Origin: a virus
DNA: 64,000 nucleotides
Direction: 5' to 3' (one strand)
Virus genome (UHGV): UHGV-1364187
The notes under the pieces were generated by a model. It worked only from the letters and a program-made list of their open reading frames with translations. It ran no database searches and was not told the DNA's origin. Position numbers and translations under genes: made by a program. This document shows, piece after piece, positions 3,609 through 63,076 of the stretch (position 1 is its first letter; the number at the start of each line of letters is the position of its first letter).

Positions 3609-4457
3609 TTACTCTTCCCCCTTTTTAAATATATTTGGAACTGTTATAAAATTATCAGATATAGTTCCAGCCTCATTTAATGTAGTATGAATAATATGTT
3701 CTTTATTATAAATTACATCTGGAATATTCATACCACGTTTTAATACTTCTATGTCAATATCATTACCGTCTGAATGAATAGCATATACATTTGACATAAA
3801 TTTTTTAACTTTTTCTTCATCACCATTAAATAATGATGTTACTCTATAAATAAATTTATCAATATTCATATGTGGATTATCAGGATAACTTTGTAAAGTT
3901 AAATCTTGATAGAATTGGTCAAATTCTGCTATATGTTTGGCTAATCCAACAAATTTGACAGATTTATCAAATTCAATATCAGATGAATCACCAGAATAGT
4001 ATATATAACCATTATAGTGATTTATAGCTAATGCATAACAGTTTTTATATTCCCCATGTTCTACTGGAACAAATAAAATTTCTGTGTCCATAATATCATT
4101 GTAATAATCTTTTACTTCATACATTAACGGATCAACTTTGCACATTCCAAGATATGCTACAATTGAACCTTTATCTGGAAAATATACGGTTGGCTTAATA
4201 CCTTTTATATAATTACAATATTCAATTAAAGAACCTAAACTGCCTACATGATCTGAATGAAGATGAGTAATAATAATATTAACTGTTTTAATATTATCAT
4301 CTATAAGTTTAAGTCTAAGAATCTGTTTAAAAATATCACCACCACAGTCTATAAGTGTAAATACATTATATTCTGGTAACACGAAAAATGCTGAATTGTT
4401 GTGTTGATCTTCATTAAAACAACTTCCTCTACCAATAAAATTTAATAATTGTTCCAT
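3609..4457 (-). CDS. metallo-beta-lactamase-fold hydrolase (possible phosphodiesterase)
   Basis: MBL signature ITHLHSDHVGSLG (HxHxDH) preceded by LIDCGG and followed by conserved His/Asp positions. Confidence 0.65.
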   Translation of the reverse strand: MEQLLNFIGRGSCFNEDQHNNSAFFVLPEYNVFTLIDCGGDIFKQILRLKLIDDNIKTVNIIITHLHSDHVGSLGSLIEYCNYIKGIKPTVYFPDKGSIVAYLGMCKVDPLMYEVKDYYNDIMDTEILFVPVEHGEYKNCYALAINHYNGYIYYSGDSSDIEFDKSVKFVGLAKHIAEFDQFYQDLTLQSYPDNPHMNIDKFIYRVTSLFNGDEEKVKKFMSNVYAIHSDGNDIDIEVLKRGMNIPDVIYNKEHIIHTTLNEAGTISDNFITVPNIFKKGEE

Positions 4458-4474
4458 AATTACATCTCTCCTTT

Positions 4475-5200
4475 TTAATAATTTGAATTATATATTGGAT
4501 TTAAATTTTGAGTAAATTGCAATCTAGCATAATAAGTATATACAGCTCCACTAAATGTCTGATATGCAAGATTCATAAACTCAATATTTTCATTAATAGA
4601 TAAATCTACTATATGATTATTTGCTAAAGGTTTTGTCTTAGATAATTGTAAGATAAAACATCCAGCAATTTCATATCCTTCTTTTATAAGCATATCCATA
4701 TATGCAGCTAATTGACACCAATACTTATAACCAATATGATTAGATGTCTTAAAATCCCCTACATATAATCTTCCATTAATCTTTAGTATTACATCTATAG
4801 TCCCACCATAATATTCACATACAGTAGGTCTTTCTATAGCAAATACTTCTACGTTATAATCTCTATTAAGTTGATTCCACCATGTTTTAAATCCAGAAAT
4901 ACAATTGAAAATTTGATTAGATATATTTCTTGGATATATAGAATAATCGACTTCATAATTACTATCAATCATGATCTTATCACAAAGATCATGAACTATT
5001 GTTCCAATATTAGCATAAAAGTCTAGTTCTTCTTCATAATTTTTATGTCTAAAACCAAGACTATTTGCCCAATTAGTAATATAATCATCATGCATCAATG
5101 ATAATATTTCTGTTACTCTTGGTACATTTCTTCCATTACATTGATATCTATCACAAGATATATATGGAGAGAAATTCATATAAGATAAAATGTTATTCAT
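4475..5200 (-). CDS. PD-(D/E)XK nuclease, RecB/Cas4/lambda-exonuclease-like
   Basis: GTIDVIL...VGDFKTS (D..D-x-K) and QLAAY (QxxxY) motifs; AAAGGAG RBS. Confidence 0.55.
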   Translation of the reverse strand: MNNILSYMNFSPYISCDRYQCNGRNVPRVTEILSLMHDDYITNWANSLGFRHKNYEEELDFYANIGTIVHDLCDKIMIDSNYEVDYSIYPRNISNQIFNCISGFKTWWNQLNRDYNVEVFAIERPTVCEYYGGTIDVILKINGRLYVGDFKTSNHIGYKYWCQLAAYMDMLIKEGYEIAGCFILQLSKTKPLANNHIVDLSINENIEFMNLAYQTFSGAVYTYYARLQFTQNLNPIYNSNY

Positions 5201-5254
5201 TTAACGTTCTCCTTTCATATAAGATTATTATAGTGTTCTAAATTAAGTAAAAAA

Positions 5255-5286
5255 TAAAAAAGATAGAGGGTTTCCTCTATCTTTTA
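5255..5286. terminator. bidirectional hairpin terminator
   Basis: agatagagg/cctctatct stem flanked by A-run and T-run. Confidence 0.55.
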
Positions 5287-5694
5287 TTCTACTTCATACA
5301 CATCATATTGTGCATGTGAGATATTATAATCAAACCCTATTACATATTTTCTATCAGGATCATCTATAAGTTTTTGTATCTCTTTTGGTACTATATTAAT
5401 TATATTACCAACTCCAAAAGATATACATGTACTATCATAATTATCTTTATTTGTACTTGGTACTATCACCTTATGTTTTTTCACTTTACAAGTACAGTTA
5501 TCTAATGTATATTGATTAATACTATATATATTATAATAAATTTTACTATCGTCTAATGTTTCTAATATAGGACCATTCTCTTTGAGTAACTTATCTAAAT
5601 AATGAATATACAATGCTCTATCTTGATTCATATATACTGTTCTTTCTAAACTATCTTTTAATTTATTTACATCTAATTCGAGATTTATTAACAT
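5284..5694 (-). CDS. hypothetical protein
   Basis: 136-aa ORF, overlaps upstream gene by 7 nt. Confidence 0.45.
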   Translation of the reverse strand: MLINLELDVNKLKDSLERTVYMNQDRALYIHYLDKLLKENGPILETLDDSKIYYNIYSINQYTLDNCTCKVKKHKVIVPSTNKDNYDSTCISFGVGNIINIVPKEIQKLIDDPDRKYVIGFDYNISHAQYDVYEVE

Positions 5695-5960
5695 GATAAT
5701 TCACTCCTTTTATTTTTCATATTTTGTTTACGAGCAATAGTAGCTCTTATTAAACATTCTCTTTTATTTTTCTTAATTACTTTTACAACTTTTTGATACC
5801 TTTTCTTACTTAGTTTACGTAATCTTACAGTTAAGTCCAGATGTACTGTAGATTTACTAACGCCGAATACTTCTGCTGTTTCTCTTAGAGTAGATTTGTT
5901 TTTTACATAATAATCCGCTTCATCTAAAATCCTTTGTTTAATACGTGCATTATTTCTCAT
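5688..5960 (-). CDS. spoIIID-like: SpoIIID-family HTH transcription regulator
   Basis: IKQRILDEADYYVKNKSTLRETAEVFGVSKSTVHLDLTVRL aligns closely with B. subtilis SpoIIID (IKERTIKIGKYIVETKKTVRVIAKEFGVSKSTVHKDLTERL); AAAGGAGG RBS; early-promoter motif 30-50 nt upstream. Confidence 0.8.
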   Translation of the reverse strand: MRNNARIKQRILDEADYYVKNKSTLRETAEVFGVSKSTVHLDLTVRLRKLSKKRYQKVVKVIKKNKRECLIRATIARKQNMKNKRSELSC

Positions 5961-5991
5961 AACTAAATCCTCCTTTAATAATCTATATTCA

Positions 5992-6014
5992 TATATATAA
6001 TATATAATTGAAAA
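5992..6014 (-). promoter_or_regulatory. conserved phage early-promoter-like motif (plus-strand text TATATATAATATATAATTGAAAA; functional sense 5'-TTTCAATTATATATTATATA)
   Basis: one of at least 12 near-identical copies located 30-60 nt upstream of minus-strand start codons. Confidence 0.55.
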
Positions 6015-6064
6015 TATTATTACTTGAACATTTACATAATAACTTGTTAAGGAGGAATTGTAAT

Positions 6065-7021
6065 ATGAATGAAACTCAGTTTTTAAAGAAACTTAATGAA
6101 ACATATTTATTTAATGTCACAGACAATTATAGAATTATGATGACTAAGGCTGTAGTTGAATCTGATAGATTGAATATCAGAGATGACAAATTTGAAGATA
6201 TTAGAGCTTCTGTTAGTAGAAGACAAGTAAACTCAGTTATTAGTAGAACTATGAAATCTCCAGATGTTGTATTTATTAAACCTAGTATTCCATTACCAAG
6301 AGCATTAAAAGTATTTACTGTAAAGGATATTAAAACTCCTGGTAACCCATTAAAAGTATTCATAGATATATCAGAAATTATCTATGAAAAAGATGGTGAA
6401 TTTAAAATCGCTTCTGTAGATAAATTAATCGCTTATCTCACATCAGCAATGATGCAATTAATCTACAATTCAGAGCCTAATAGACTTATTAGTAATACAA
6501 CATTAATTGCTCCACTTAGAAGTGGGTTTGCTCAATTGGTATCATACATAATAGATTATCTATATAAGACTAGTAATCTTGACGGTATGAGAGATATGAT
6601 TAAACATATGGCTTCAATGTATTTTGATATTAATATTCTTAAAAGAGATTATAATATATCAAAAGATAGTATAGATGCAGCTGCATTAAAAATATCTGGA
6701 TTATCTAATAGACAGTTGGATGTATTAGAAATCTATACAGAAGATGATACATTTGATAATATTAAAACATTTGTAGAAACATTAAATGAATTACTTAAAG
6801 TACAAAAACTAACTATAGATGTTTTTATGAAAAAATGGTTAGACTTATGTGGTTCTGGTACTCAATTTGCATTAGAATATTTCCCATCATTGTCAGATAT
6901 GTTTACTAATGCTTATTGTTTATCATATATCAATAACCAAAAGACTATAGAAAAGATTGTAGGAAAAGATTTATCTTTATATTCATCTAAGCTTATAGCT
7001 TTAGGAGGAGGATTGATCTAG
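6065..7021 (+). CDS. hypothetical protein (ORF from 6008; likely start ATG 6065 after AAGGAGG)
   Basis: RBS taaggagg 8 nt before ATG 6065; AACA-N6-TA late-promoter-like string at 6031-6044. Confidence 0.5.
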   Translation: MNETQFLKKLNETYLFNVTDNYRIMMTKAVVESDRLNIRDDKFEDIRASVSRRQVNSVISRTMKSPDVVFIKPSIPLPRALKVFTVKDIKTPGNPLKVFIDISEIIYEKDGEFKIASVDKLIAYLTSAMMQLIYNSEPNRLISNTTLIAPLRSGFAQLVSYIIDYLYKTSNLDGMRDMIKHMASMYFDINILKRDYNISKDSIDAAALKISGLSNRQLDVLEIYTEDDTFDNIKTFVETLNELLKVQKLTIDVFMKKWLDLCGSGTQFALEYFPSLSDMFTNAYCLSYINNQKTIEKIVGKDLSLYSSKLIALGGGLI

Positions 7022-10000
7022 ATGAAAGTATTTGATTTAATGAGTAAATTACATAAGAGCACAGATAGTGCTCTTATGGAAACTCAATTGGGACATATTC
7101 CATTAGTATATGAATTACAGAAAGAGAAATTTCCAAGCAATATTAAATATAGACATGAATTAAGAGATTCTAATTCTTATAGAGTTCTTAAACAAGACTT
7201 TGTTAGAACAGGATTAGATGATTCTAAATTTATGAATGCTAATGATTTGTATAAAAATGGTAAAGTAAGAAAGATTATTTGTGTAGATCAAAATGGTTAT
7301 AAAGTGAATGATTCTACTATAAATATAATAATAGATGAAAGAACGTTCTTTATAAATTCAACAGATCCATATGCTGAATTAAAATATTGTATAGTATTTA
7401 TGGAAGATATAGTATATGATAAATCGTCTGTTATATTCGGTATAACAAATGGTATGTTTGTTGGTGGTATTGGTACTAATGAATGTATATCGTCTAAGAA
7501 TCTATTTATGGAAGCAGTGTTTACAACAGATGGGTTAATAGAACCTAAACAACTTAATGCTAGATATAAAGTATTTAAAGAAAATATATATGTAGTAAAG
7601 AATGGTAAGTTTTTATCTCACGATGTAACTCATGTATATGGAAATGTATTCAAAATTAATGATTTTACCGATACGGATAACTGGTTTGTTTATATTATAT
7701 ACTACAAAGATGAAGAATGTATAGATAATGTAAATAAATTAGAAAGTAAAATTAGAATTTTAGATGGAATGTTTCAAGAACTCCCAAACTATATAGAAAA
7801 AATGAGTGATGATTTTGACTATAGAATAGATCCAAATAAATCATATAAAGAAAATCTTCATGATATATTGAATTATATTTCAAATTATAATCATGAAGGT
7901 TTATTACAATTATATCTAGAGAATAAGACTTCTATTATAGAAGAATATACTGGAAAGTATATGATATCTTTAACTAAACCTGGAGATATTTGTGCTTATC
8001 TCCCAAGAAGAAGAAATGGAAAACAATATAATTATATAATTATGTATGTAAATGGATTATTATATAAATATCATGATGAGATAGAATATAATATTACCAA
8101 TATTAAAATACCATTAAAAGAAATCAATCATGAAGACGAGATTTTAATACAATTCTTTTTAGATTGTGGTAATAATACTTATAATACGACTTTTACTAAA
8201 GGTGCAACAAATACTATAAATTTTAGATATATTACTACCAATCCAGCTAATATAGAATTATATTCTCCAGAGTTTGAAGGAAAACATCTTTATGATTTGC
8301 CAGTAGATGATACAAGACCATTAAAAGTCGATTATGAGTATACTATGAATGGAAAAGATATGGAAGTTGAATTAGAAAATCCATATCTATATGGTAAAGA
8401 ATTAGCAATAGTGAATAAAAGACAGTTTAGACATCAAAAGATGCAAATACCAATTAAATATAGAAATAAATTAAGATATAAAGCATATTCTATAAGTACT
8501 ATATTATCTACATATAGAAACAATATTCCAAATAATATAGATGAATTTAATGCTTTATTTAGTAATATGACAGCTACATTAGAAAGTATTATAGATATAC
8601 CTAATGAATTAAATTTTATAGGAGTAGACGAATTCCCACCAGAATATTCTACAGATACATTTGCTATAGAATTAGAAGGATGTTTCTGGGTAGAAAAAGA
8701 AGATATATATAATATAGTGCTATTATCTAATGCTGGATCTAGATTATATATAGATGATCAACTTATGACTGTAGATATAAATGGTAGATTTAATGTAGGA
8801 GATGTAGATAATGGTCCTAATAGATGTAATATATTATTAGATAGAGGATATCATAATATAAAGATAGATTATGTCAATAATGTAGAACATCCATTATTAC
8901 AATTAGCATGGAAAGGATCTACAGAACAATACTATTCTATGATGAATGGAGATTTCTTATATCAAGAATTACCAGACTATTATATTCTTAAATTAAATGA
9001 AACAGATTTTAAATACTGTTTAAATTTTGGTCATTTTATCATGTTCAATGATGGAAGAAGATTATATGATAATGAGGCTTATGTAAAATTACATGGTATA
9101 GACCAAGTATATGATCAATCATATATAATAATATCAAAACCAATTCCAGAAGGAGATTTTATTGATATTTTCTATGTTCCAGATATAATTCTAGAAGTGT
9201 ATAGAGAAGATAGATTACCGGAAGATGGATATATTACTGTAGACAAAGATAATATGCTTAATACAAATCATCCAGAATTGTGTAATGTATATGTCAATGG
9301 TAAACTTATTAATCCTAAGCACATGATTAATCTAAATACTAATACTATGAAAATCAAATCTAATATTCACACTAAATCTTCAGTATGCGTATTAAAGACT
9401 AATATGTATGATGGATATACAGACGCAATATTTGAATATTCAAATGATGTATGGACAGAAGTAACAAATGGAATGTCACTAGAAGTAAAAAATAAATATC
9501 TTGGTGATTATGAAGATATTATCGATGAAGAACCAGATTATTTCAAACCACCATGTGTAGATTTAATATGGGCAATTATTAAGAAATTCTGGATAGATAG
9601 ATTTGGAGTTATCGATGCTGAAATGTTATTCCAATACAATGATGATCCAAGAGTATTAAGAAAGACAAAATTCTTACATGATTATATAGAATCTACAGAT
9701 TATGAAGATAACTCTAATATAGAATATAAATTATATGATCAAGATTATCATAAGTATCATAAGTTTATATGTAAATCACCAACTGCACTAAAATTTGGAA
9801 AACATGAAAATTTAGATCCTAATAAGAAATATTCTATCTCTATGAGTGTATCTTTATATTTAAATTTATCTCAACCAACAGATAGATTTTATTGTGAATT
9901 ATATGGAAGTGGTGGTACTAAACAAATTCCATTATGCTATAACCAAGAAACTTCTTTAGATATATCTCAAGTACCAAAAGTATATATGCTTAGATTATAT

Positions 10001-10207
10001 CTAGATAATATACCAATTACATCAGACTTTAATAATCTTAGAGTAGTATGTAATTTTAAAAATAGTGAAGAATTTGTTAAATTTGAAGATGGTATATTCT
10101 TAGAAGAACATGAATTTTCTAATAGAAATATAGAATCTATCATCATAGATCCATCTGTTATTACAGGAGTTAAACTTCCATATGGAAGTGAATTTGATAA
10201 AGAATAA
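7022..10207 (+). CDS. large hypothetical protein (1061 aa), probably virion-associated
   Basis: long ORF translationally coupled to upstream gene (TAG ATG). Confidence 0.5.
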   Translation: MKVFDLMSKLHKSTDSALMETQLGHIPLVYELQKEKFPSNIKYRHELRDSNSYRVLKQDFVRTGLDDSKFMNANDLYKNGKVRKIICVDQNGYKVNDSTINIIIDERTFFINSTDPYAELKYCIVFMEDIVYDKSSVIFGITNGMFVGGIGTNECISSKNLFMEAVFTTDGLIEPKQLNARYKVFKENIYVVKNGKFLSHDVTHVYGNVFKINDFTDTDNWFVYIIYYKDEECIDNVNKLESKIRILDGMFQELPNYIEKMSDDFDYRIDPNKSYKENLHDILNYISNYNHEGLLQLYLENKTSIIEEYTGKYMISLTKPGDICAYLPRRRNGKQYNYIIMYVNGLLYKYHDEIEYNITNIKIPLKEINHEDEILIQFFLDCGNNTYNTTFTKGATNTINFRYITTNPANIELYSPEFEGKHLYDLPVDDTRPLKVDYEYTMNGKDMEVELENPYLYGKELAIVNKRQFRHQKMQIPIKYRNKLRYKAYSISTILSTYRNNIPNNIDEFNALFSNMTATLESIIDIPNELNFIGVDEFPPEYSTDTFAIELEGCFWVEKEDIYNIVLLSNAGSRLYIDDQLMTVDINGRFNVGDVDNGPNRCNILLDRGYHNIKIDYVNNVEHPLLQLAWKGSTEQYYSMMNGDFLYQELPDYYILKLNETDFKYCLNFGHFIMFNDGRRLYDNEAYVKLHGIDQVYDQSYIIISKPIPEGDFIDIFYVPDIILEVYREDRLPEDGYITVDKDNMLNTNHPELCNVYVNGKLINPKHMINLNTNTMKIKSNIHTKSSVCVLKTNMYDGYTDAIFEYSNDVWTEVTNGMSLEVKNKYLGDYEDIIDEEPDYFKPPCVDLIWAIIKKFWIDRFGVIDAEMLFQYNDDPRVLRKTKFLHDYIESTDYEDNSNIEYKLYDQDYHKYHKFICKSPTALKFGKHENLDPNKKYSISMSVSLYLNLSQPTDRFYCELYGSGGTKQIPLCYNQETSLDISQVPKVYMLRLYLDNIPITSDFNNLRVVCNFKNSEEFVKFEDGIFLEEHEFSNRNIESIIIDPSVITGVKLPYGSEFDKE

Positions 10208-10210
10208 AAA

Positions 10211-10250
10211 ATAAAAAGAAAGATAGGTACTAACCTATCTTTCTTTTATT
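10211..10250. terminator. bidirectional terminator between convergent genes
   Basis: aaagaaagataggt/acctatctttcttt 14-bp stem. Confidence 0.6.
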
Positions 10251-10604
10251 ATATTCTTCTCTAACATCAATCATCTTTTGACCTCTATACCGTCCGACGA
10301 TTAATTCTCTCTTAGCGATCCATTCATCACCTGCAATTTGCATATACTTTTCTAAAATGACGCATGTATATTTAGTCTTATTAATATTAACAACAATATC
10401 AAGTGTCTCATCACATTTACCATCTTTATAACTACAATTATTACATAATATTTTCTCTTCTTTAGATTCTTTAATATCACCTAATGAACCATCTGATACA
10501 TACAATTTATAATATAAACCTCTTGGTTCTCTATCCTTTAGTTCTAAATTAATATTATTACATCTTCCTTTTAATGTGAATTTCATTTCTTTTGATTTTA
10601 CCAT
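10230..10604 (-). CDS. hypothetical protein
   Basis: 124 aa; AAGGAGGAG RBS. Confidence 0.45.
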   Translation of the reverse strand: MVKSKEMKFTLKGRCNNINLELKDREPRGLYYKLYVSDGSLGDIKESKEEKILCNNCSYKDGKCDETLDIVVNINKTKYTCVILEKYMQIAGDEWIAKRELIVGRYRGQKMIDVREEYNKRKIG

Positions 10605-10628
10605 AATAAATACTCCTCCTTAAAATAA

Positions 10629-10658
10629 ATAGAGAATACTCTTAAGAGTATTCTCTAT
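10629..10658 (-). terminator. hairpin terminator
   Basis: perfect 15-bp palindrome atagagaatactctt/aagagtattctctat after the stop of the 10664 gene. Confidence 0.55.
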
Positions 10659-10663
10659 ATGTA

Positions 10664-11185
10664 TTATAATAATTCTTTTAATTCTTCTGTAATTGGTATT
10701 ACATCTTGTTGCAATTTACCATATTCATTATAATATTGAATTATAATAGACTTTTCTGTTAATGCTACCCCTGATAATTTCTCATTTTTTAGAATAAAAC
10801 CTATACTATACCCACTTTGTGTTTTTATAATATTTTTATAAGTGGGATGTTCACTATCACTCATTATATAATCTTTAATCTCTCTAAACAATGGTAATAC
10901 TTTAAAGTTTCTCACTTTATAAGTAGCAAGTTTCTTCAGGTTTTTTACAGCTTCTTTCTTTGTATCAGCCCATATACGAGTTTTATTTTTAAACCATTTT
11001 CCTACATATGGTTCATATTCCTCATATATTATAGTATAATAATGCTCATTTCCAGTAACATAGGGTCCTTCTAAATACTCACTTCTACAAGCTAATGAAT
11101 TAGGTCTCATATACATACAATCTTCGCCACTAACTTCGCATTCAGCATGAGACATATCATATCGTTTTGCCCATTTACAACTCAT
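10664..11185 (-). CDS. hypothetical protein
   Basis: 173 aa; CAAGGAGG RBS. Confidence 0.45.
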   Translation of the reverse strand: MSCKWAKRYDMSHAECEVSGEDCMYMRPNSLACRSEYLEGPYVTGNEHYYTIIYEEYEPYVGKWFKNKTRIWADTKKEAVKNLKKLATYKVRNFKVLPLFREIKDYIMSDSEHPTYKNIIKTQSGYSIGFILKNEKLSGVALTEKSIIIQYYNEYGKLQQDVIPITEELKELL

Positions 11186-11261
11186 TTTAAATAACCTCCT
11201 TGAATTAATTATTTAGATGAAAAATATAACACTAGGTTTTTACCATAGTGTTATATCTATA

Positions 11262-11495
11262 TTAATGCATCACAAACATAACCGTTCCGACAATAGCAGT
11301 TATGATTGCAAATATTAATGATTTATCTACAAATTTTCGTGTCTTTATTAAATTATCGACGTCAACATTTTCCCCATTGATGCTACTACGAATTATACTT
11401 AATGCTAATCTAGAATTACTAAGCATTGCAGATGCGATTATCATTAATGCCATCCCATAAATATTACTCATCATAAATAACCAACTCCCTCTCAT
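11262..11495 (-). CDS. small two-TM membrane protein, holin-like (probable start at MMSNIYG, about 11474)
   Basis: two hydrophobic helices (IYGMALMIIASAML; LIFAIITAIVGTVMFVM) separated by a charged loop; GAGGGAG RBS. Confidence 0.4.
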   Translation of the reverse strand: MRGSWLFMMSNIYGMALMIIASAMLSNSRLALSIIRSSINGENVDVDNLIKTRKFVDKSLIFAIITAIVGTVMFVMH

Positions 11496-11584
11496 TTTTA
11501 AATTATTTTAATTTAGAATATAGTTGTCTTGCTAATTTGTAACTATTATTTTTTTTACTGATTCGAATGATGTTGATTCTTCTA

Positions 11585-11986: not shown

Positions 11987-12058
11987 TAAACAACTCCTTT
12001 AATATATAATATAGTTTTTATTTGAGTATAATACATATTATTTATACTATACTCACCT

Positions 12059-12080
12059 AAATAATATATAATTGAAAATT
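12059..12080 (-). promoter_or_regulatory. early-promoter-like motif copy
   Basis: AATAATATATAATTGAAAAT next to the 12101-12128 terminator hairpin. Confidence 0.45.
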
Positions 12081-14030: not shown

Positions 14031-14061
14031 TTTATATCTCTTTTTTATTTATAAAATTTAT

Positions 14062-14091
14062 ATATAGAGTAGATTATAATCTACTCTATAT
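14062..14091 (-). terminator. hairpin terminator
   Basis: atagagtagatta/taatctactctat. Confidence 0.45.
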
Positions 14092-14235
14092 ATTTATATA
14101 TAATGGATAATAATAAGTAAAGTTTAATCTATATATGTTATAGTATAGATTTCTCCTTTCTTATCTATCTTTTAAGGGTTCTTAGTCAACGCCTTTAAAA
14201 GCCCCTTACTTTCTTGTTAGAAGTTTAATAAAACT

Positions 14236-15408
14236 TTACAATCTTGTCTTAAGAACTTCTAAAATCTTAAATTGTAAAGTTGATGGATTAATTAATTCAT
14301 CACCTCTCATATTTACAACATTATCAATATTTACTCCATAATTATTACACATACCAGATGCAGTTTCTTTATTAATCTTACCAATTTCAATATGGTAATC
14401 AAATCTACCATTTCTAAGTATAGCATCATCTAATTTATCTTTATAATTAGTAGTACCAATAAAGATACAATTATTTGGAGAGTTAATACCATCTAATACA
14501 TTAAGAAGATCACCAATTGTATCATATTTCATACTCTTCATATAATTATCAAATGGATTATATTGTTTATCTTTCTTATTATCATCTTTATCAGATCTTG
14601 TTCCTGTAGAACAATCTATATCTTCAAACAATATTACAGAATTAGTCATTCTTGAAATATTATTTATAAGATTATCATTAATATAATTAACTTTTATAAT
14701 TACTAATCTATATCCCATATAACTAGCAATAGCCTTAGCAAATGATGATTTACCAGTTCCAGGTTCTCCATATAATAGAATACCTATATTATGTTTTATT
14801 TGATGCTTTTTATAGATAAAGTCATCTTTCTTAAACTTCTCAAGTATATCTATAATCTGTTCTTTTTTGTCTGAGAATATATTATTCATTGAATATTTAT
14901 CATATTCATATTGATAAAAACTACCATTTTCTGAATATTGTCTAACATCTAATTTATTTACACTTTCTCCTCCTTTGTTTATATAATTAGTAATATATTC
15001 AAATTCTTGCTTCGCATTGACTCCACATATAGAAATATTTATTATATGATTACGAGAATCAGAAGCATCAAATGGAATATTACTAATTGTATATAAACAC
15101 TTATTATGCCATCCAGTGAAATGTAGATTAGAAGGTATATTATTGTCACTTGATGTTGATTTACTTTCATCTAAATATCTATTTGGTTTATAAAATTTAT
15201 TTAAATTTGGAAATAATTCATGCAAGACTTTACATGTATTGTTATAAGGTTCTAACCAAAACATATCATCAACTTGTATCTTATAACATATCTTTTGTTC
15301 AATTGATTTCTTCACTAATGGTGTAACTGTTCTTACAACACTATTTCCTAAGTTTGTTAATCCTGCTACTGCTGCTAATTTCATTAATTGTTTAACTTCT
15401 TTATTCAT
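14236..15408 (-). CDS. AAA+ ATPase, Bcs1-like classical AAA (paralogue 1)
   Basis: C-terminal AAA module: IGILLYGEPGTGKSSFAKAIA (Walker A), ILFEDIDCS (Walker B), IFIGTTNYKDKLDDAILRNGRFDYHIEIG (second region of homology); about 200-aa unique N-terminal domain. Confidence 0.75.
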   Translation of the reverse strand: MNKEVKQLMKLAAVAGLTNLGNSVVRTVTPLVKKSIEQKICYKIQVDDMFWLEPYNNTCKVLHELFPNLNKFYKPNRYLDESKSTSSDNNIPSNLHFTGWHNKCLYTISNIPFDASDSRNHIINISICGVNAKQEFEYITNYINKGGESVNKLDVRQYSENGSFYQYEYDKYSMNNIFSDKKEQIIDILEKFKKDDFIYKKHQIKHNIGILLYGEPGTGKSSFAKAIASYMGYRLVIIKVNYINDNLINNISRMTNSVILFEDIDCSTGTRSDKDDNKKDKQYNPFDNYMKSMKYDTIGDLLNVLDGINSPNNCIFIGTTNYKDKLDDAILRNGRFDYHIEIGKINKETASGMCNNYGVNIDNVVNMRGDELINPSTLQFKILEVLKTRL

Positions 15409-15428
15409 AATCTATAATCTCCTTATAA

Positions 15429-15608
15429 TTAATTATTTTTATTATCAAAAAATGTGAATTTACACCAAGTGATAAAACTTATTGTAACAGCTATCAATAT
15501 AATGATTCCTGGAATACTATCTTGTCAAACTTGACGTAATACTTGTACTGCTATAAAGTATAATATTGTCATACCGAAATTTAATAAAATTCTATTTTCT
15601 GTTTTCAT
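15429..15608 (-). CDS. small TM peptide ORF (27 aa) ending in TGA, followed in frame by a 31-codon open continuation with a second TM segment (possible readthrough product of about 59 aa)
   Basis: ATG 15608 MKTENRILLNFGMTILYFIAVQVLRQV-TGA-QDSIPGIIILIAVTISFITWCKFTFFDNKNN-TAA; the continuation has no start codon and ends 20 nt before the next gene's ATG. Confidence 0.3.
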
Positions 15609-15622
15609 ATACAATCCATACT

Positions 15623-16498
15623 TTAATTTCTTTCACATAATAATTTTAATTGTAATTCACTTTGATTATATGGTGCTTCCATATCTTTAAGAATCTTATC
15701 TGGATCGGCACCAAAATATCTACACATATTTTCTGCAACTTCTCTATTATGTATTGGTTTAACTTCAAAGATCATATCAAATCTACCACTACGTAATAAA
15801 GCTTCATCTAATTTTTCTATATGATTCGTAGTAGCAATAAACATAACTTCTTCTTGAGAGTTAATACCATCCATTACATTTAACAATCCAGCGATATTAT
15901 TTTTATCTTCTACAACTTCCCCATTATCATTAACATTATTAGTTTTCTTATCTAAATATCTATCTATATCTTCAAATACATATATTGTTTCTTCGTATTT
16001 TGGGAGAGTTTTTAATTTAAATGGATCATTTACAGTAATAATACGTCTATTTGTATAATATGCTATAGCTTTGATAAGACTAGTTTTTCCTGTACCTGGT
16101 TCGCCATATAATAAAACTCCAGTCTTATGTATAATATGTTTTTCTTTATAAAAATCTGTATTTGAATTAAATTTGTCTATAAATTTAATAAGTGGTGATA
16201 TATCATCAAAGAATAATTCATCTAAAGATTTACAATATACACGATTAATTAAACCGTTTATAGTATTTGTATTACTATCAAATTCTTGAACATATACAGA
16301 ATTTGGTCTTGATTTAATAGGTGGATGATATTCATCAATTTCTTTAAAAATTTCCAATTTATTATGTCCTATAATATAAAACTTACACGTATTAAAATTT
16401 TTCATTACCTTATTGTCAGTACCTATAGTTTTGAATTCACTTTTTATATCAAATATAATATATGATGATTTATATATACATATATGAATACCGCTCAC
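15623..16498 (-). CDS. AAA+ ATPase, Bcs1-like classical AAA (paralogue 2)
   Basis: TGVLLYGEPGTGKTSLIKAIA, IYVFEDIDR, MFIATTNHIEKLDEALLRSGRFDMIFEV. Confidence 0.75.
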   Translation of the reverse strand: MSGIHICIYKSSYIIFDIKSEFKTIGTDNKVMKNFNTCKFYIIGHNKLEIFKEIDEYHPPIKSRPNSVYVQEFDSNTNTINGLINRVYCKSLDELFFDDISPLIKFIDKFNSNTDFYKEKHIIHKTGVLLYGEPGTGKTSLIKAIAYYTNRRIITVNDPFKLKTLPKYEETIYVFEDIDRYLDKKTNNVNDNGEVVEDKNNIAGLLNVMDGINSQEEVMFIATTNHIEKLDEALLRSGRFDMIFEVKPIHNREVAENMCRYFGADPDKILKDMEAPYNQSELQLKLLCERN

Positions 16499-16561
16499 TA
16501 TATTATTTATACATTGTATTTTTTATCGTATATAAACCCAACTTTTTCTAAATTATTCTTT

Positions 16562-16597
16562 GTATTATTTATACACCATATGATATATCTGTCAAGT
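16562..16597 (-). promoter_or_regulatory. host sigma-A-type promoter (TTGACA-17-ATAAAT with upstream TG)
   Basis: minus-strand text cTTGACAgatatatcatatggtgTATAAATaat about 65 nt upstream of the AAA+ paralogue 2 start. Confidence 0.4.
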
Positions 16598-16639
16598 TTA
16601 CATCCTGCTATATTACAAGTAATTAGATATTTGGATTTA

Positions 16640-16750
16640 ATAAGATTCAATGATTTTTTTACTTAACGTTTTTATTAAATGCTTACATGTTTCTTTAGTT
16701 AAATCCTTAGCTACTGATTTGATTAAAGTGCTTTTCTTTTTCATAATAGA
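16640..16750 (-). CDS. small basic protein (36 aa) not in the ORF track
   Basis: AAGGAGAGAT RBS then ATG 16750 (MKKKSTLIKSVAKDLTKETCKHLIKTLSKKIIESY); early-promoter motif 40 nt upstream. Confidence 0.4.
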
Positions 16751-16786
16751 ATCTCTCCTTTAAAATATATTATACTATTTTCATAT

Positions 16787-16810
16787 TTATAATATATAAT
16801 TGAAAAATAT
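16787..16810 (-). promoter_or_regulatory. early-promoter-like motif copy
   Basis: TATAATATATAATTGAAAAATAT directly downstream (minus sense) of the endolysin terminator. Confidence 0.5.
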
Positions 16811-16838
16811 ATTAGAAGAGTAAAAATACTCTTCTAAT
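16811..16838 (-). terminator. hairpin terminator after the endolysin gene
   Basis: attagaagagta/tactcttctaat. Confidence 0.6.
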
Positions 16839-16841
16839 ATA

Positions 16842-18026
16842 TTATAATTGTTTAAATGATCCTTCTTGAATATATCCACGTATATCTTTATATTTACATG
16901 CGTATACAGAAATACCATTTATAATTTGTTTCTTAGTAGATGTAAGGATAGTATCTCCTTTTTTACCAGTACATAAAATTTTAAGATCTTTATCTCTTAT
17001 ATTAGCACTGTTTACTAATACAGCATTATATCTTTCATCTATTCTTTCTACATATTGAGCATATACCCAACCTCTATCAGTTTTATACCATCCACCTTTT
17101 TCTTCTAAAAGACTAATAACTTCACCATTTTTATATGTTCCTACAATGGTAGCGTTTGTTGAAGGTGTTTGTCTTATATTTAAAGATGGTGCGGCTATAA
17201 CTTTACCTGTTGCACCTGTGATATTTAATGATGTTGAATTGTTAGTATTAGAATCATTCATTATATCTAAAGCTATATCTTTAGAATACTTAGAACTAGA
17301 AGACATGAATCCAGATACATTATCAACTTTAACTCTATACCACCCATCAACAGTTTCGTATACATTTAATTCTGTTCCTGTTGGTAAAGATTTAATGACA
17401 TCATATACTTGATTAGGTCCTTTTCTTATATTCATATTATCTATCAATTTTATTCTCTTATCGATAGAATCTTCTAATGCTACGTTTCTTCCATTCATCA
17501 TATCTTGATATAAATCTTGAACTTTTAATTTAAACTCTTTCCAAGCATTTATATCAGATATATAAAATGCTGGGCAATTCTTTCCAGTAATATCATAATG
17601 TCTATATACATCATTAATTGTAAGGTGATATTTCTTTAGAAGATATGCAGTTAACCAAGCAGTGTTTTCCATAACCTTACTAAAGTTTGAATCTTTATTA
17701 ACACACATCTCTATTGAAATTGTAGTATAGTTTGGTTGTAATCCATTATGAAATAATTTCTTTCCAGTAGCAGTATATGATTTAGCTCCTACTGACCATG
17801 CTACTTCATTATCTGGAATTGCTTGTAATATGATTGTATCATCTACTAAATACTGTGTACTTGCATAAGTCGTAGTAGTTTCGTAATAATTCCTATTAGC
17901 TCTAGCATTAGCACGATTACCATAATTAGCTGTGTAATGAATTACTATACCTTTTCTTATAGTGCATTTAGTCATAGGTCTATTCCTAGTACTTGTTAAT
18001 AAATCTTGTGTTATTGTTGTTACCAT
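16842..18026 (-). CDS. endolysin: N-acetylmuramoyl-L-alanine amidase (Amidase_2/PGRP) with two C-terminal SH3b domains
   Basis: N-terminal amidase region (IVIHYTANYGNRANARANRNYY...EMC...HYDITGKNCP) and two SH3-like repeats (GWYRVKVDNVSGFM; GGWYKTDRGWVYAQYV). Confidence 0.8.
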   Translation of the reverse strand: MVTTITQDLLTSTRNRPMTKCTIRKGIVIHYTANYGNRANARANRNYYETTTTYASTQYLVDDTIILQAIPDNEVAWSVGAKSYTATGKKLFHNGLQPNYTTISIEMCVNKDSNFSKVMENTAWLTAYLLKKYHLTINDVYRHYDITGKNCPAFYISDINAWKEFKLKVQDLYQDMMNGRNVALEDSIDKRIKLIDNMNIRKGPNQVYDVIKSLPTGTELNVYETVDGWYRVKVDNVSGFMSSSSKYSKDIALDIMNDSNTNNSTSLNITGATGKVIAAPSLNIRQTPSTNATIVGTYKNGEVISLLEEKGGWYKTDRGWVYAQYVERIDERYNAVLVNSANIRDKDLKILCTGKKGDTILTSTKKQIINGISVYACKYKDIRGYIQEGSFKQL

Positions 18027-21264: not shown

Positions 21265-21354
21265 AAGTATTCACACTCCTTTAATTTAGTTTATTTAGAT
21301 GTTTTCGTATAAAAAATAAAAGAGATATATATATAAAATCTCTCTTTTAAATGA

Positions 21355-22049: not shown

Positions 22050-22077
22050 CTTATATAATATATATAATCAAAATTTT
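22050..22077 (-). promoter_or_regulatory. early-promoter-like motif (variant AATCAAAAT)
   Basis: TATATAATATATATAATCAAAATTTT with a 5'-UTR hairpin (22026-22047) before the Bro-N gene. Confidence 0.4.
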
Positions 22078-25451: not shown

Positions 25452-25477
25452 AAAATCATCTCCTTTATAATTTTATT

Positions 25478-25506
25478 CATATTTATAATATATTATTGAA
25501 AATCAT
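25478..25506 (-). promoter_or_regulatory. early-promoter-like motif copy
   Basis: TATAATATATTATTGAAAATCAT 27-55 nt upstream of ATG 25451. Confidence 0.45.
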
Positions 25507-37503: not shown

Positions 37504-37530
37504 AATAAAATCACTCCTTATATATGTATT

Positions 37531-37558
37531 CAATTATATAATATATAATTGAAATTAG
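37531..37558 (-). promoter_or_regulatory. early-promoter-like motif copy
   Basis: CAATTATATAATATATAATTGAAATTAG adjacent to terminator 37554-37592. Confidence 0.5.
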
Positions 37559-43622: not shown

Positions 43623-43660
43623 TATAATACACTCTCCTTTAGTATTATTAAATATATACT

Positions 43661-43689
43661 CACATATATAATATATAATCAAAATGAAT
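43661..43689 (-). promoter_or_regulatory. early-promoter-like motif (AATCAAAAT variant)
   Basis: CACATATATAATATATAATCAAAATGAAT next to terminator 43686-43721. Confidence 0.45.
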
Positions 43690-43864: not shown

Positions 43865-45052
43865 CTATACTACATTTTTATGTGTTCTATATTTTACAAT
43901 ATCACTTATAGTACTAATATTATATCCAGTACTATATTTTATTTCAGTTAGTGTCATACCCTCTTGTTCATACATTCTTCTTATATCTCTTACAATATCA
44001 TCTGTTATACTTCTTCCAGGAGCATTGGATAAATCATATTGTTCATATATATCTCTATGTGCTCTACCGCTAGTAATATTCACAATAGTTTTTCTATTTA
44101 TATCAAGATGATGTGATATCATTGTTGGAGTATATCCATTGGAAAACAATATCATTATATTATGCACATCTTCATCTGTAATCTTAGTTGGAACATAAGC
44201 ATTAGATAAATCGTATTGATTTCTAATATCTAAATGTTTCTTTCCACCATATACAATATTAGTTACAGTTTTTCTATTTAAATTTAATTCATCTGCAATC
44301 TGATATGCTTGATACCCTTGAGAATATAATCTAAATATATCATGTAAAGTATCTTCTGGAAGTAATCTTGTAACTTGATCTAATTCTAATTCTTCATATA
44401 CATCTTTATGGCTAGAACCACATGATATATTTCTTACATTAACATATGAAACTCCAGTTTTTTCTGCAATTTCTTTAAGAGATAATGTTGTATCCTTAAT
44501 AAGATTACCAACTTCATAAGCTTTCTCTTTAGATATACATATAGCTTCTACTTCTGGTCTTAATTCTTCATATGAATGATGAACATTTTCTAATGGAGTA
44601 GCCCATTCAAGATTACATAACCAATTACACCATGTACAACCATTTATATGATTGACTTGATATTGTTCTGGATTTTCTATTGGAAGAAATGTCATCATTA
44701 CTAATCTATGAACAAAGTATATATGTTTCTTTCCATCAAGACATGATAATCCAACTCGTAGATATCCTTTATCTGTAGATTGTTGTTGCATGAATACATT
44801 ATTAAGTAATGAGAATATTCTTCCGTAATTACTTACCATATATCTTCCAGGAACAATTTCTTCTGAATTTATAAATACAAATATTTCATCTGGAGCCATA
44901 AGTGGGATATATGTATATTCTTGTTGATAATTTGAAAATTGTTCTGGTATATAATTTGGTGGTAGTTCTTTTCCAGTCTTAGAAATATATGCTGGAATTA
45001 TTAAATTTTTGATTTCTTGTCCTTCTTTATACTCTTTGTTTTTGTAATACAT
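43865..45052 (-). CDS. HNH homing endonuclease with NUMOD-like DNA-binding repeats
   Basis: HNH_3 core VHRLVMMTFLPIENPEQYQVNHINGCTWCNWLCNLEWATPLENVHHS; NUMOD4-like N-terminus; four repeated helix motifs (e.g. YQIADELNLNRKTVTNIVYG). Confidence 0.7.
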   Translation of the reverse strand: MYYKNKEYKEGQEIKNLIIPAYISKTGKELPPNYIPEQFSNYQQEYTYIPLMAPDEIFVFINSEEIVPGRYMVSNYGRIFSLLNNVFMQQQSTDKGYLRVGLSCLDGKKHIYFVHRLVMMTFLPIENPEQYQVNHINGCTWCNWLCNLEWATPLENVHHSYEELRPEVEAICISKEKAYEVGNLIKDTTLSLKEIAEKTGVSYVNVRNISCGSSHKDVYEELELDQVTRLLPEDTLHDIFRLYSQGYQAYQIADELNLNRKTVTNIVYGGKKHLDIRNQYDLSNAYVPTKITDEDVHNIMILFSNGYTPTMISHHLDINRKTIVNITSGRAHRDIYEQYDLSNAPGRSITDDIVRDIRRMYEQEGMTLTEIKYSTGYNISTISDIVKYRTHKNVV

Positions 45053-46382: not shown

Positions 46383-46454
46383 CTAATTTATATTAATTAG
46401 ATGTAAACAGACAAAAAATAAAAGAGCAGAAACTAATCTACTCTTTTATATGTA

Positions 46455-48523: not shown

Positions 48524-48573
48524 TATAATTCCTCCTTTATAAGTAATATAATATTATATAGATGTTTAGACGT

Positions 48574-51030
48574 TTAAATACGAGTTATCTCTATCATGTC
48601 TTCTGGAATACAACTATCATTATAAGTATTGATAACTTTTATATCTAATTCATGTTGGAACATAAAATGGTTTATATCATCAAACTCATAGAATATTTTA
48701 AACCATATTTCTTCTCTGTTAATTCCAATAAATTCTGGATCATCTGGTTTATCTCCAAGATCTAATCCCCAACCAATACTAATTTCATCTCTAATTGGAA
48801 TTTTATCATCTAATGTATTATATACTTCAAACATTGGAGTTTCATCAAACTCAGTGTATGTTTTTACATCAAAAGCACTAATCCATCTCATGGTATCAAT
48901 AACTTTTATTTTATTACCAATAACATCATCAAATCTATACACTGTATTGATCTTGTCTAATTGAATTTTATAAGATTTATAAAAGTTTATTACAGTATAG
49001 ATATATTGTTTTACTACATTACCTATCATTGGCATATTCATGAATAGATAATCAAATTCACTACAATTAATATAATCTTCTAATGAAGATAATATCTCAA
49101 TCATAGTATCAGAAATAGCATTCTCTTTTTCTTTTCCGTCTAATAATCTTATATTACTAATATGATTATAAATATCTATATTATTATATAAGAAGTATTC
49201 TGTATATGTTTTAGCCATACTACCATCTGGTAATTGATATACTTTATTTGATACGTCTGTTACCATTAATGCATTATATATATCTTCATATATTCTGTAT
49301 ATATCAGCATCGTTAGCATTTTTCATTTGATATATAATATGATCATAAATCTTCTTATTAGTAAGGAATATATTAGTTAATTGATTGAATGTAAGAATTT
49401 GTTCTGTTGGTATAATAAATTCATCTATTCCTAGTTGTTCTAAAGTTACATGATTATTCATTAGATATTCTGATAATTTGGTAAAATCTAATTGAAAATT
49501 AAATCCCATAACAGATAATACTTTAGACGGTGCATCAGACACAATATCATCTTGTAAACCTGATTGTTCATAATTAAGTAGATATAAATACATTATAGCA
49601 TGTTTAATATTGATAGATGCTTCTGATATCTTATACACTTTAATATTTAGATTGTCTTCTAAGAATACATCATCCATAATCATATTAAAGAAATAACATG
49701 TTTCAAATGTAAGTTTATCCATTTCATATATAGTATCTATAGATAAGTATTTACTTCTTTCTATATTAAATTCTCTAGATATGATTTGTTTATATATAGT
49801 ATCTTTATCATTACCTCCACACCAGAATGGATCATCCTTTGTCATATCCTCATATGATACATAACATTTATCATCTCTGATATAGTTATCAAGTATACCA
49901 TCTATTGGAACTTTGATAAATTTAAGTTCAAAATTATTTACATAATCATCAACAGTTTCATATTGACCAGTTTCTTGATTGATTTCTGTAACCGTATCAA
50001 ATAAATATTCACCGTTTTCATCAACTTTTCTAGCTCTAAGAATATAATATTTAAACAATTCTACATTCTTAAATCCGAATAATGAACATATATCAACCAT
50101 GTTCTTTGTAGTAGATTTAAATGTAAGAAGAGTATTCATATTCTTTAACATCGCTAATTGATATTTCATAGGTATTTCCTCAAAATATGTTATACCACTT
50201 GATTCAAATATATATTTTACAGTTCTAAGATCAAATACATCTTTACGAATAATCATATCTGGTATATCCATTAATAAATCACACATAGCTTGAATCTTTA
50301 TGAAGATTATTATAAATTTATTATAATAATCATTTTTATAAAGCATAGCATCTTTATATAAACATGTAAGAGCATAAGTTCTTGCATTCTCTATTTTTTC
50401 CCTATATCTATTCTTTATTTCTGTTATAGATACTTGTGGCATATAAATAATACCAAATCTAGGTAATGTTCTTAATAGATATGGATCTATACTTAATGAT
50501 CCTAAATAATTAAGATATTCAGCATCAGGATATAATTCTCTATATTTATCTAATATACCCAATCCTTCTAATACATTTAATTCACTAGTAGTCATTTTAT
50601 GTAATGGTATTTTATTATTAACACCAGCTATTTGTTCCGTTATTTTTATACCATCATCATCCAACGGTGGTAATCCACAAAATGTTCTATAATAATCATT
50701 CTGTTCTTCATAATTATTTATAAAATCTCTAACAGCAATTTTTAATAATTTATCATGGTATTCTTTTGGAATATTAGCATGGAATACATATGGATCATCT
50801 GCTGTTAGTCCAACCTCATTAAGCTGAGCTACAGTATAATTAAACATATCAAATGATGCTAAACCTCTTCTACATTGTATATATGTATTTGCAATTCTTG
50901 ATATGTCTAATGTTTCGTATTTTCCGACTTCATCTTCATCTTTTAATATAGTATCCATCATTAATGTTTTCCCTACATGTATTAACGTGTCTACCATAGG
51001 ATAATCTGTTTCTATTTTATTATATGACAT
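48574..51030 (-). CDS. large hypothetical protein (ORF to 51087; likely start MSYNKIETD after AAATGGAGG)
   Basis: about 818 aa. Confidence 0.5.
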   Translation of the reverse strand: MSYNKIETDYPMVDTLIHVGKTLMMDTILKDEDEVGKYETLDISRIANTYIQCRRGLASFDMFNYTVAQLNEVGLTADDPYVFHANIPKEYHDKLLKIAVRDFINNYEEQNDYYRTFCGLPPLDDDGIKITEQIAGVNNKIPLHKMTTSELNVLEGLGILDKYRELYPDAEYLNYLGSLSIDPYLLRTLPRFGIIYMPQVSITEIKNRYREKIENARTYALTCLYKDAMLYKNDYYNKFIIIFIKIQAMCDLLMDIPDMIIRKDVFDLRTVKYIFESSGITYFEEIPMKYQLAMLKNMNTLLTFKSTTKNMVDICSLFGFKNVELFKYYILRARKVDENGEYLFDTVTEINQETGQYETVDDYVNNFELKFIKVPIDGILDNYIRDDKCYVSYEDMTKDDPFWCGGNDKDTIYKQIISREFNIERSKYLSIDTIYEMDKLTFETCYFFNMIMDDVFLEDNLNIKVYKISEASINIKHAIMYLYLLNYEQSGLQDDIVSDAPSKVLSVMGFNFQLDFTKLSEYLMNNHVTLEQLGIDEFIIPTEQILTFNQLTNIFLTNKKIYDHIIYQMKNANDADIYRIYEDIYNALMVTDVSNKVYQLPDGSMAKTYTEYFLYNNIDIYNHISNIRLLDGKEKENAISDTMIEILSSLEDYINCSEFDYLFMNMPMIGNVVKQYIYTVINFYKSYKIQLDKINTVYRFDDVIGNKIKVIDTMRWISAFDVKTYTEFDETPMFEVYNTLDDKIPIRDEISIGWGLDLGDKPDDPEFIGINREEIWFKIFYEFDDINHFMFQHELDIKVINTYNDSCIPEDMIEITRI

Positions 51031-51139
51031 TATATTTACCTCCATTTCATTTATCAATTTACTTATATGTAAAAATGTTCTAAACATATGATATTACAAC
51101 ATAATAGTAAATTGATATAGAAAGAGGTGTAAAAAAAAT

Positions 51140-56846: not shown

Positions 56847-56877
56847 TATATCTAAACCTCCTTTAGATTATATCTCT

Positions 56878-56906
56878 CATATATATAATATATAATTAAA
56901 ATAATT
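56878..56906 (-). promoter_or_regulatory. early-promoter-like motif copy
   Basis: TCATATATATAATATATAATTAAAATAAT then hairpin 56905-56933. Confidence 0.45.
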
Positions 56907-58906: not shown

Positions 58907-58925
58907 ATTATATTTACCTCCTTTT

Positions 58926-58954
58926 CATATATATAATATATAATTGAAAAATAG
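58926..58954 (-). promoter_or_regulatory. early-promoter-like motif copy
   Basis: CATATATATAATATATAATTGAAAAATAG then hairpin 58955-58981. Confidence 0.5.
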
Positions 58955-60575: not shown

Positions 60576-60685
60576 TATGTTAGAAACCCACAAATGGTTG
60601 TGGTTATATATTTTTTAATATATGAGCTAACACCTAATAGGAAACAATTTAACAGCAAGATAAAGGTCATTACGATCATTAACTT

Positions 60686-60713
60686 CATATATATAATATA
60701 TAATTGAAATTTT
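60686..60713 (-). promoter_or_regulatory. early-promoter-like motif copy
   Basis: CATATATATAATATATAATTGAAATTTT with hairpin 60714-60751 upstream. Confidence 0.45.
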
Positions 60714-63048: not shown

Positions 63049-63076
63049 TTATTTCGATTATATATTATAAATATGA
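63049..63076 (+). promoter_or_regulatory. early-promoter-like motif in plus-strand functional orientation
   Basis: TATTTCGATTATATATTATAAATATG 49-76 nt upstream of ATG 63125. Confidence 0.45.

Follow-up and report, generated by a model that had tools for sequence, protein, structure and literature searches.

Tandem anchor-less AAA+ ATPases of the Bcs1/YjoB family next to the endolysin gene of a gut phage are not a lysis device

The 64,000-nucleotide (nt) stretch of the virus genome UHGV-1364187 analysed here (hereafter, the window) carries an endolysin gene that is followed on the minus strand by two paralogous AAA+ ATPase genes. The window ATPases are classical AAA+ ATPases of the Bcs1/YjoB family; among the Bcs1-like ATPases already known from jumbo phages, the locus represents a tandem variant that lacks the anchor and is specific to its clade. 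Along the minus strand, two fibre-like genes are followed by the endolysin gene, an open reading frame (ORF) of 35 amino acids (aa), an AAA ORF of 291 aa, a 214-nt spacer and an AAA gene of 390 aa (Table 1). In the original prediction, made from the sequence alone, this arrangement was taken for a lysis-associated cassette with ATPase-driven export of the endolysin. The cassette is not a lysis device, because the ATPases are encoded in a separate unit, bounded by terminators and headed by an early-type promoter motif, they lack a membrane anchor, and one copy is broken. We consider it fairly probable that the tandem ATPases, encoded in an early unit, are a soluble or peripheral chaperone or remodeller of the Bcs1/YjoB type, separate from the late unit of the fibre and endolysin genes.

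Both predicted AAA+ paralogues are present, with 37% identity between them across 214 aa (E 1e-36). Their two ORFs match Pfam AAA as well as phrog_7485, an uncharacterised family of phage proteins. Each contains a single AAA domain of the classical clade with Walker A, the sensor-1 Asn and the arginine fingers, and the Walker A and second-region-of-homology motifs quoted in the prediction were found in the sequence. Over 64 sequences, residues G214, G217, G219, K220, N321, R332 and R335 are invariant. Walker B reads ILFEDID in paralogue 1 and YVFEDID in paralogue 2, with E262 invariant and D263 nearly so; the order "ED" instead of "DE" is a peculiarity of Bcs1 and YjoB (Kwon et al., PMC9565160). 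A profile of the clade gave one continuous match to yeast Bcs1 (profile positions 39-358 to Bcs1 79-408, 148 bits), extending from the N-domain through the AAA domain, while Cdc48-type matches reached a comparable score only with two domains.

The AlphaFold (AF2) model of paralogue 1, built on the 64 sequences (pLDDT 89.5), consists of a basic amphipathic N-terminal helix, a beta-rich N-domain of the Bcs1 type and the AAA domain with the "ED" Walker B. In a Foldseek search with this model, the top 11 matches were full-length Bcs1 (E 1e-20 to 1e-15); Bacillus subtilis YjoB came next (3e-15), and other AAA classes appeared from 6e-11. The alignments covered 390-445 columns for full-length Bcs1 and ~375 columns for YjoB. 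Thus, the beta-rich N-domain specific to Bcs1, where it forms a chamber, is present in the predicted structure. At the sequence level, Pfam BCS1_N was undetected in the window proteins and reached no more than a sub-threshold score in the relative L012, and a profile of the N-domain alone searched against PDB returned no Bcs1 and no match of any kind. The Bcs1-clade assignment of the original prediction is borne out by the clade profile, the Walker B order and the Foldseek result, including the AlphaFold modelling that had been proposed as a check, which was run on paralogue 1 and gave Bcs1 as the best full-length fold match. Identity with the defence ATPase of the IetAS system was rejected: NCBIfam IteA_antiphage scored 49 bits against a cut-off of 510, and the PADLOC IetA matches were local, around Walker A.

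Mitochondrial Bcs1 (yeast and mouse; PDB 6SH3, 6UKS, 8TP1) shares with the window proteins the single classical AAA domain, the "ED" Walker B, the beta-rich N-domain and the best full-length fold. In contrast to Bcs1, the window clade has no transmembrane helix and no sequence-detectable BCS1_N, and its members are phage-encoded tandem paralogues. The maximum Kyte-Doolittle value over 19 residues within the first 60 residues was 0.39-0.97 in the window clade, compared with 1.99 in L007 and 1.60 in L008, two single-copy relatives with a clear N-terminal transmembrane helix; the anchor typical of Bcs1 proper is absent from the clade, whose N-terminal helices are amphipathic with a net charge of +3 to +10. 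In this trait, as judged by hydropathy, the window-clade ATPases resemble YjoB more than Bcs1. YjoB of B. subtilis (PDB 7W42), a soluble chambered chaperone of a Firmicute, has in common with them the anchor-less state, the Bcs1-type N-domain, the "ED" motif and the fold; it differs from the phage proteins, which have a long basic N-terminal helix. The YjoB N-domain has been reported as specific to Bacillales, without sequence similarity to others (PMC9565160).

BCS1 orthologues occur in all major groups of jumbo phages, and a role in membrane-proximal assembly has been proposed for them (Iyer et al. 2021, PMC7824862). Such orthologues, for instance Erwinia phage Phobos gp119 and Klebsiella phage Miami gp182, fall with the window proteins into phrog_7485 and come from genomes of jumbo size; the characterised examples are single-copy with no adjacent lysin, whereas the window locus is an anchor-less tandem pair in a clade of gut phages. 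Our literature search found nothing on Bcs1 in connection with phage lysis. This is consistent with the earlier remark that no phage lysis system with paired AAA+ ATPases had been described, but the Bcs1 orthologues of jumbo phages were already on record (PMC7824862). Relatives of the ATPases were found in 268 phage records, and 412 were confirmed among the candidates scanned in IMG/VR. The copy number varies from one to four. On the 526-kb IMG/VR contig L082, four Bcs1-like copies lie in tandem (~4738-11570), so that copy-number expansion is not confined to the window clade.

The gene order is conserved: in L001/L002, L003, L005 and L009 (the last on a 244-kb contig), too, an endolysin gene is followed by two or three Bcs1-like genes. 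These relatives share the whole block, with fibre genes in most of them and a gene for a 220-236-aa protein after the ATPases in L001, L003 and L005. Divergence within the clade is uneven: the ATPases are 32-42% identical and the endolysins, compared over the amidase domain in L001, L003, L005 and L009, 58-71%. A neighbour-joining tree separates the upstream from the downstream type of ATPase across the clade, which argues for an old duplication with both copies usually kept. Outside the clade, the ATPase gene is single-copy and stands among polymerase, helicase, nucleotidyltransferase or unannotated genes, and a homologue of this endolysin (lysins of other families being outside this test) was found within 7 kb of an ATPase relative in none of 80 other viral IMG/VR loci.

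A key question is whether the ATPases share a transcription unit with the endolysin. In our assessment it is rather likely, as far as motifs and gene content can indicate, that the source is a jumbo phage related to AR9 and PBS1 and that the interval is the junction of two separately regulated units. Four terminator-like hairpins were found, compared with 0.3 expected in shuffled sequences. The one behind the endolysin gene has a counterpart of different sequence, with a 20-bp stem, in the same place in L003 (5141-5188); the one behind paralogue 1 is weaker because its minus-strand tail is less T-rich. The motif that directly follows the first hairpin is one of ten window copies of a 25-nt motif for which 0.06 copies were expected, and none of 100 shuffles reached ten. 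On the minus strand, the motif (TTTYRATTATATATTATAWATRTGA) occurs at 5989-6013, 12053-12077, 16781-16805, 25477-25501, 37530-37554, 43660-43684, 56877-56901, 58925-58949 and 60685-60709, and on the plus strand at 63052-63076; a variant lies near 22068 (minus strand). All copies are intergenic and aimed at a downstream gene, often right after a hairpin, and the annotated genes behind them encode RNase H, two Bro/Ant-like proteins and a SpoIIID-like regulator, with no structural protein among them.

In AR9, the experimentally mapped early consensus of the virion RNA polymerase (RNAP) is AAATATATATTAT-(6N)-G (PMC5312081). The window motif (...AATTATATATTAT-N6-G) agrees with it at 12 of 13 positions and has the G at the right spacing, and is a predicted promoter; it differs in being longer, with 25 conserved positions, and in being known from sequence alone. 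The same motif stands between the endolysin gene and the ATPase cluster in L001, L003, L005 and L009, while in L012 it precedes a fragment of the RNAP beta-prime gene, and the ATPase gene follows at a greater distance in that direction, also on this strand. The motif before the fibre and endolysin genes, AAACATCTAAATAA, fits the AR9 late consensus of the non-virion RNAP, AACA-(6N)-TA/G (PMC5312081), and is kept at the corresponding place in L003, L001 and L009. The late-type motif AAACATCTAWWTAA also occurs at 46393-46404 and 48554-48565 (minus strand), before two genes beside the gene of a virion structural protein.

Together, the motifs suggest a two-polymerase transcription scheme like that of AR9 and phiKZ, and we infer from their respective AR9-like motifs early expression of the ATPase genes and late expression of the endolysin gene. 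The comparison with AR9 is reasonable because the nearest matches of a window virion protein (48574-51087) are proteins of Fusobacterium jumbo phages, PBS1 and AR9. The source contig (256,505 bp; 25% GC in the window) comes from gut metagenomes, and megablast of the region gave zero matches to deposited phages, i.e., no close relative among them; an IMG/VR scan for close relatives with a single protein as the query likewise returned nothing. The sigma-A promoter (TTGACA-17-ATAAAT) placed before paralogue 2 in the original prediction does exist as a sequence, but it lies within the broken coding region of that gene and probably arose by chance: a similar -10 box accompanies 11 of the 23 perfect TTGACA hexamers of the window, and promoter-like matches in the region (35) are below the number given by shuffling (44).

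Paralogue 1 is intact, and the identical protein occurs on four contigs; paralogue 2 is a broken gene. Its 291-aa ORF begins with GTG, has no ribosome-binding site and matches paralogue 1 only from residue 89, while the corresponding gene in related phages encodes 363-369 aa. Upstream, a strong ribosome-binding site precedes the 35-aa ORF, which shares the frame of the 291-aa ORF, and a 47-aa ORF in another frame bridges the two. Two mutually compensating frameshifts, at an A7 run (16654-16660) and an A6 run (16519-16524), account for the pieces: taking one A out of the A7 run and putting one into the A6 run restores a 373-aa protein. Once repaired, its residues 1-94 align with residues 1-95 of the L003 orthologue (35% identity, E 2.7e-10), and the whole protein is 46-48% identical to four orthologues of 365-369 aa, with 98-100% of the length aligned. 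Thus, what had been taken for a separate basic peptide of 36 aa is the N-terminus of paralogue 2. The two N-domains, described earlier as divergent and of 150-200 aa, are indeed ~200 aa each, but they are homologous, since the repaired paralogue 2 regains its N-terminal part.

The frameshifts are probably real, because the other inspected window genes are unbroken, although the window holds 100 A/T runs of at least six. On the same grounds, sequencing error is an unlikely cause; the contig name (k119_...) hints at assembly from short reads. Programmed slippage was rejected: it would require two events (+1, then -1) on non-canonical sites, and therefore only traces of full-length paralogue 2 could be made. 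An intact near-identical copy of paralogue 2 was not found in the protein database. Three independent assemblies (L093, L094 and L095) start at window positions 15660, 15637 and 15629 and so exclude both frameshift sites. They are of low coverage and from other samples, and encode the identical paralogue 1. Their break points, all at the 3' end of paralogue 2, lie no more than ~30 nt apart; the shared break may be a branch point caused by upstream strain variation.

Another question is whether the small hydrophobic ORF in the spacer encodes a membrane partner of the ATPases. The ORF of 27 (+31) codons (ATG at 15608, TGA at 15525-15527, TAA at 15429-15431) is real as sequence; the sequence, including the TGA, is identical across three independent gut-metagenome assemblies. 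No homologue was found in the related loci or among 5.8 billion proteins, except for a code-4 gene call of this same contig, a 59-aa JGI protein with W at the TGA position. An alternative code in which TGA encodes Trp, giving a 59-aa protein with two helices, was ruled out: TGA terminates 6 of 67 long ORFs and is internal in no long gene, and therefore functions as a stop codon in the phage. DNA this rich in AT often yields spurious ORFs with hydrophobic stretches. The ATPase genes of L001 and L003 adjoin with nothing between them, and those of L005 and L009 are split by larger proteins without a strongly hydrophobic stretch. We see no basis for a functional role of the ORF as a membrane partner; of the small transmembrane peptides predicted between the ATPase genes, one is a fragment of the broken ATPase and the other is this unconserved ORF with its internal stop.

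The endolysin call stands, with Pfam Amidase_2 and two SH3_3 domains confirming an SH3b amidase. The predicted lack of a signal peptide agrees with our reading of the N-terminus, in which no signal-peptide-like hydrophobic stretch was seen (by eye, not by a predictor), and a canonical holin adjacent to the endolysin is indeed absent, since no holin-like gene abuts it. The gap between the fibre and endolysin genes is 20 nt and free of hairpins; in L001 and L003 the place before the endolysin is taken by syntenic genes for 480-542 aa, and in L009 by one for a Phage_fiber_rpt protein. With low confidence, we propose as a candidate holin, more ordinary than the ATPases, the 77-aa protein with a hydrophobic helix at each end that is encoded ~5.3 kb downstream of the endolysin; small two-helix membrane proteins in L003 (9573-9746, 57 aa) and L001 (10641-10781, 46 aa) are its syntenic counterparts, matched by position.

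Table 1 Features of the endolysin-ATPase region of the window
Feature	Position	Strand	Remarks
Late-type promoter-like motif AAACATCTAAATAA (AACA-N6-TA)	21291-21302	-	Ahead of the fibre-fibre-endolysin operon
Tail-fibre-like gene, 539 aa	19645-21264	-	Upstream of endolysin, same unit
Tail-fibre-like gene, 526 aa	18047-19627	-	Directly upstream of endolysin, same unit
Endolysin: N-acetylmuramoyl-L-alanine amidase with two SH3b domains	16842-18026	-	Pfam Amidase_2 3.9e-20, SH3_3 1.5e-23; PHROG amidase/endolysin
Intrinsic-terminator-like hairpin	16806-16843	-	17-bp stem, T-rich tail; immediately after endolysin stop
Early-type promoter-like motif TTTCAATTATATATTATAAATATGA	16781-16805	-	Putative start G 16782, 38 nt before paralogue 2 ATG; directly after first hairpin
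Bcs1-like AAA+ paralogue 2, upstream type	15623-16744	-	373-codon gene with two frameshifts; Pfam AAA 6.2e-22
35-aa ORF (piece of paralogue 2)	16637-16744	-	
47-aa ORF (piece of paralogue 2)	16507-16650	-	Other frame, bridging
291-aa AAA ORF (piece of paralogue 2)	15623-16498	-	
TTGACA-17-ATAAAT	16567-16595	-	Inside broken paralogue 2 coding region; probable chance match
Small hydrophobic ORF	15429-15608	-	27 codons, in-frame TGA, 31 further codons; in 214-nt spacer; weak ribosome-binding site
Bcs1-like AAA+ paralogue 1, downstream type	14236-15408	-	Intact, 390 aa; strong ribosome-binding site; Pfam AAA 3.9e-22; phrog_7485 5.5e-42
Hairpin after paralogue 1	14060-14093	-	15-bp stem; likely end of ATPase unit
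77-aa protein, hydrophobic helix at each end	11262-11495	-	By hydropathy; no Pfam or PHROG match

The hairpins and promoter-like motifs mark out two units. A first has the late-type motif, encodes the two fibre-like proteins and a cytoplasmic amidase endolysin, and ends at the hairpin terminator; a second begins right after it with the early-type (virion-RNAP type) motif and carries the tandem ATPases. If the ATPases are an early chaperone or remodeller, they would assemble into a ring with an internal chamber which, going by the structural model, the Bcs1-type N-domains would form, and in relatives where both paralogues are intact the ring would hold both. Because a transmembrane helix is absent, the ring would act in the cytoplasm or, by way of the basic amphipathic N-helix, at the membrane surface, by analogy with YjoB. 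ATP would be spent on holding or remodelling folded client proteins early in infection, the likeliest clients being host-takeover or anti-defence targets, or phage proteins in need of assisted maturation. The adjacency to the endolysin would then be an inherited gene order rather than a functional coupling. The loss of the anchor, the duplication and the early-type promoter motif point away from assembly or lysis and towards an early cytoplasmic role in chaperoning or remodelling. Several points weigh against this scheme. The late-type motif is low in information (four window matches, 1.1 expected), and the early and late classes are assigned by the likeness of short AT-rich motifs to those of the distant AR9 and by the kinds of genes downstream; no RNAP subunit was found in the window. 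The predicted basic amphipathic N-helix could still take the ring to the membrane, and the endolysin-ATPase adjacency is kept down to 32% ATPase identity (L009), which may be functional rather than inertia.

This adjacency in five related phages, together with an endolysin without an obvious signal peptide or a neighbouring holin and the ability of Bcs1 to translocate a folded protein (PMC7824862), is what speaks for a lysis device, in which the paired ATPases would export the endolysin or time its release across the membrane in place of a holin, with the hydrophobic peptides as membrane partners. We regard such a device as highly improbable: in each of the five phages a terminator and a switch of promoter class come between the endolysin and ATPase genes, the transmembrane helix needed by a Bcs1-type translocase is missing, the endolysin gene is intact but paralogue 2 is not, and the two supposed peptides are a piece of that broken ATPase and an ORF with an internal stop and no homologues. 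In addition, the ATPase genes of the relatives abut or flank non-membrane proteins, the single-copy relatives that do have a transmembrane helix adjoin polymerase, helicase or nucleotidyltransferase genes and not lysins, none of the 80 other loci has a homologue of this endolysin within 7 kb, and the conserved small two-helix protein downstream could be the holin. To judge by gene order and motifs, an endolysin co-encoded and co-expressed late with a membrane partner is not apparent at the locus. The tempting claim of a new lysis system is thus removed, the apparent small peptides being largely a broken gene.

The only published idea for the common Bcs1-like ATPases of jumbo phages is membrane-proximal head assembly (PMC7824862), and a variant of it would be assisted folding of the neighbouring fibre proteins. 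A chaperone of virion assembly would suit a family so widespread in jumbo phages and the position of the ATPase genes beside fibre genes in the window clade, but it is unlikely here, where the promoter motif is of the early and not the late type, the anchor has been lost and one copy is broken; a copy number of one to four and divergence faster than that of the endolysin are also unusual for core morphogenesis genes. A more specific version of the early chaperone or remodeller is an anti-defence or host-takeover effector, i.e., a ring that would trap and disable a folded host protein, for instance a defence complex or an envelope or stress factor, shortly after infection. The second reading offered in the original prediction, an accessory or (anti-)defence module, is a candidate that agrees with the data. 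The effector would fit the early-type motif, the accessory behaviour of the genes (variable copy number, rapid divergence, one decayed copy), the occurrence of Tad3 (L005) and Apyc1 (L001) in the same blocks of relatives, and the weak similarity to the defence ATPase IetA. We consider it possible but doubtful, since the IetA similarity covers the Walker A region only and is far below the cut-off, and the neighbouring anti-defence genes lie kilobases away in other units. That the two paralogue types, in phages with both copies intact, are expressed from an early promoter and form a soluble hetero-oligomeric chamber capturing or dismantling a folded host complex, such as an immune or envelope-stress factor, is a quite unlikely elaboration; if true, phages would have a kind of machine for host takeover or anti-defence that is new as a class, and the widespread Bcs1-like ATPases of jumbo phages would gain their first function.

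The surrounding genes provide several further observations. A metallo-beta-lactamase-fold protein (3609-4457, minus strand) resembles the anti-Pycsar nuclease Apyc1 with a score below the threshold (27.5 bits, cut-off 50); in the same syntenic blocks of relatives, Apyc1 is clear at 16887-17615 of L001 and Tad3 at 3209-3859 of L005. Pfam and PHROG searches gave no matches for neighbouring proteins of 118, 159, 526 and 77 aa, the matches of a 236-aa neighbour were confined to PHROG families without an assigned function (best phrog_3532, E 6.4e-27), and the 539-aa fibre-like protein had only marginal PHROG matches, likewise of unknown function. The host is probably a Firmicute; a 90-aa SpoIIID-like regulator (5688-5960, minus strand; phrog_11726, E 9.5e-21), encoded downstream of an early-type motif, hints at a spore-forming one. 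A probable homing endonuclease with HNH_3, NUMOD4 and helix-turn-helix domains (43865-45052, minus strand) is surrounded by genes of unknown function. Finally, a PA14-domain protein of more than 1000 aa is encoded at 7022-10207 on the plus strand, opposite to the endolysin and ATPase genes, and is conserved in the same surroundings in L001 (11220-14444) and L009 (14250-17116); an adhesin or a receptor-binding protein is a possible identity.

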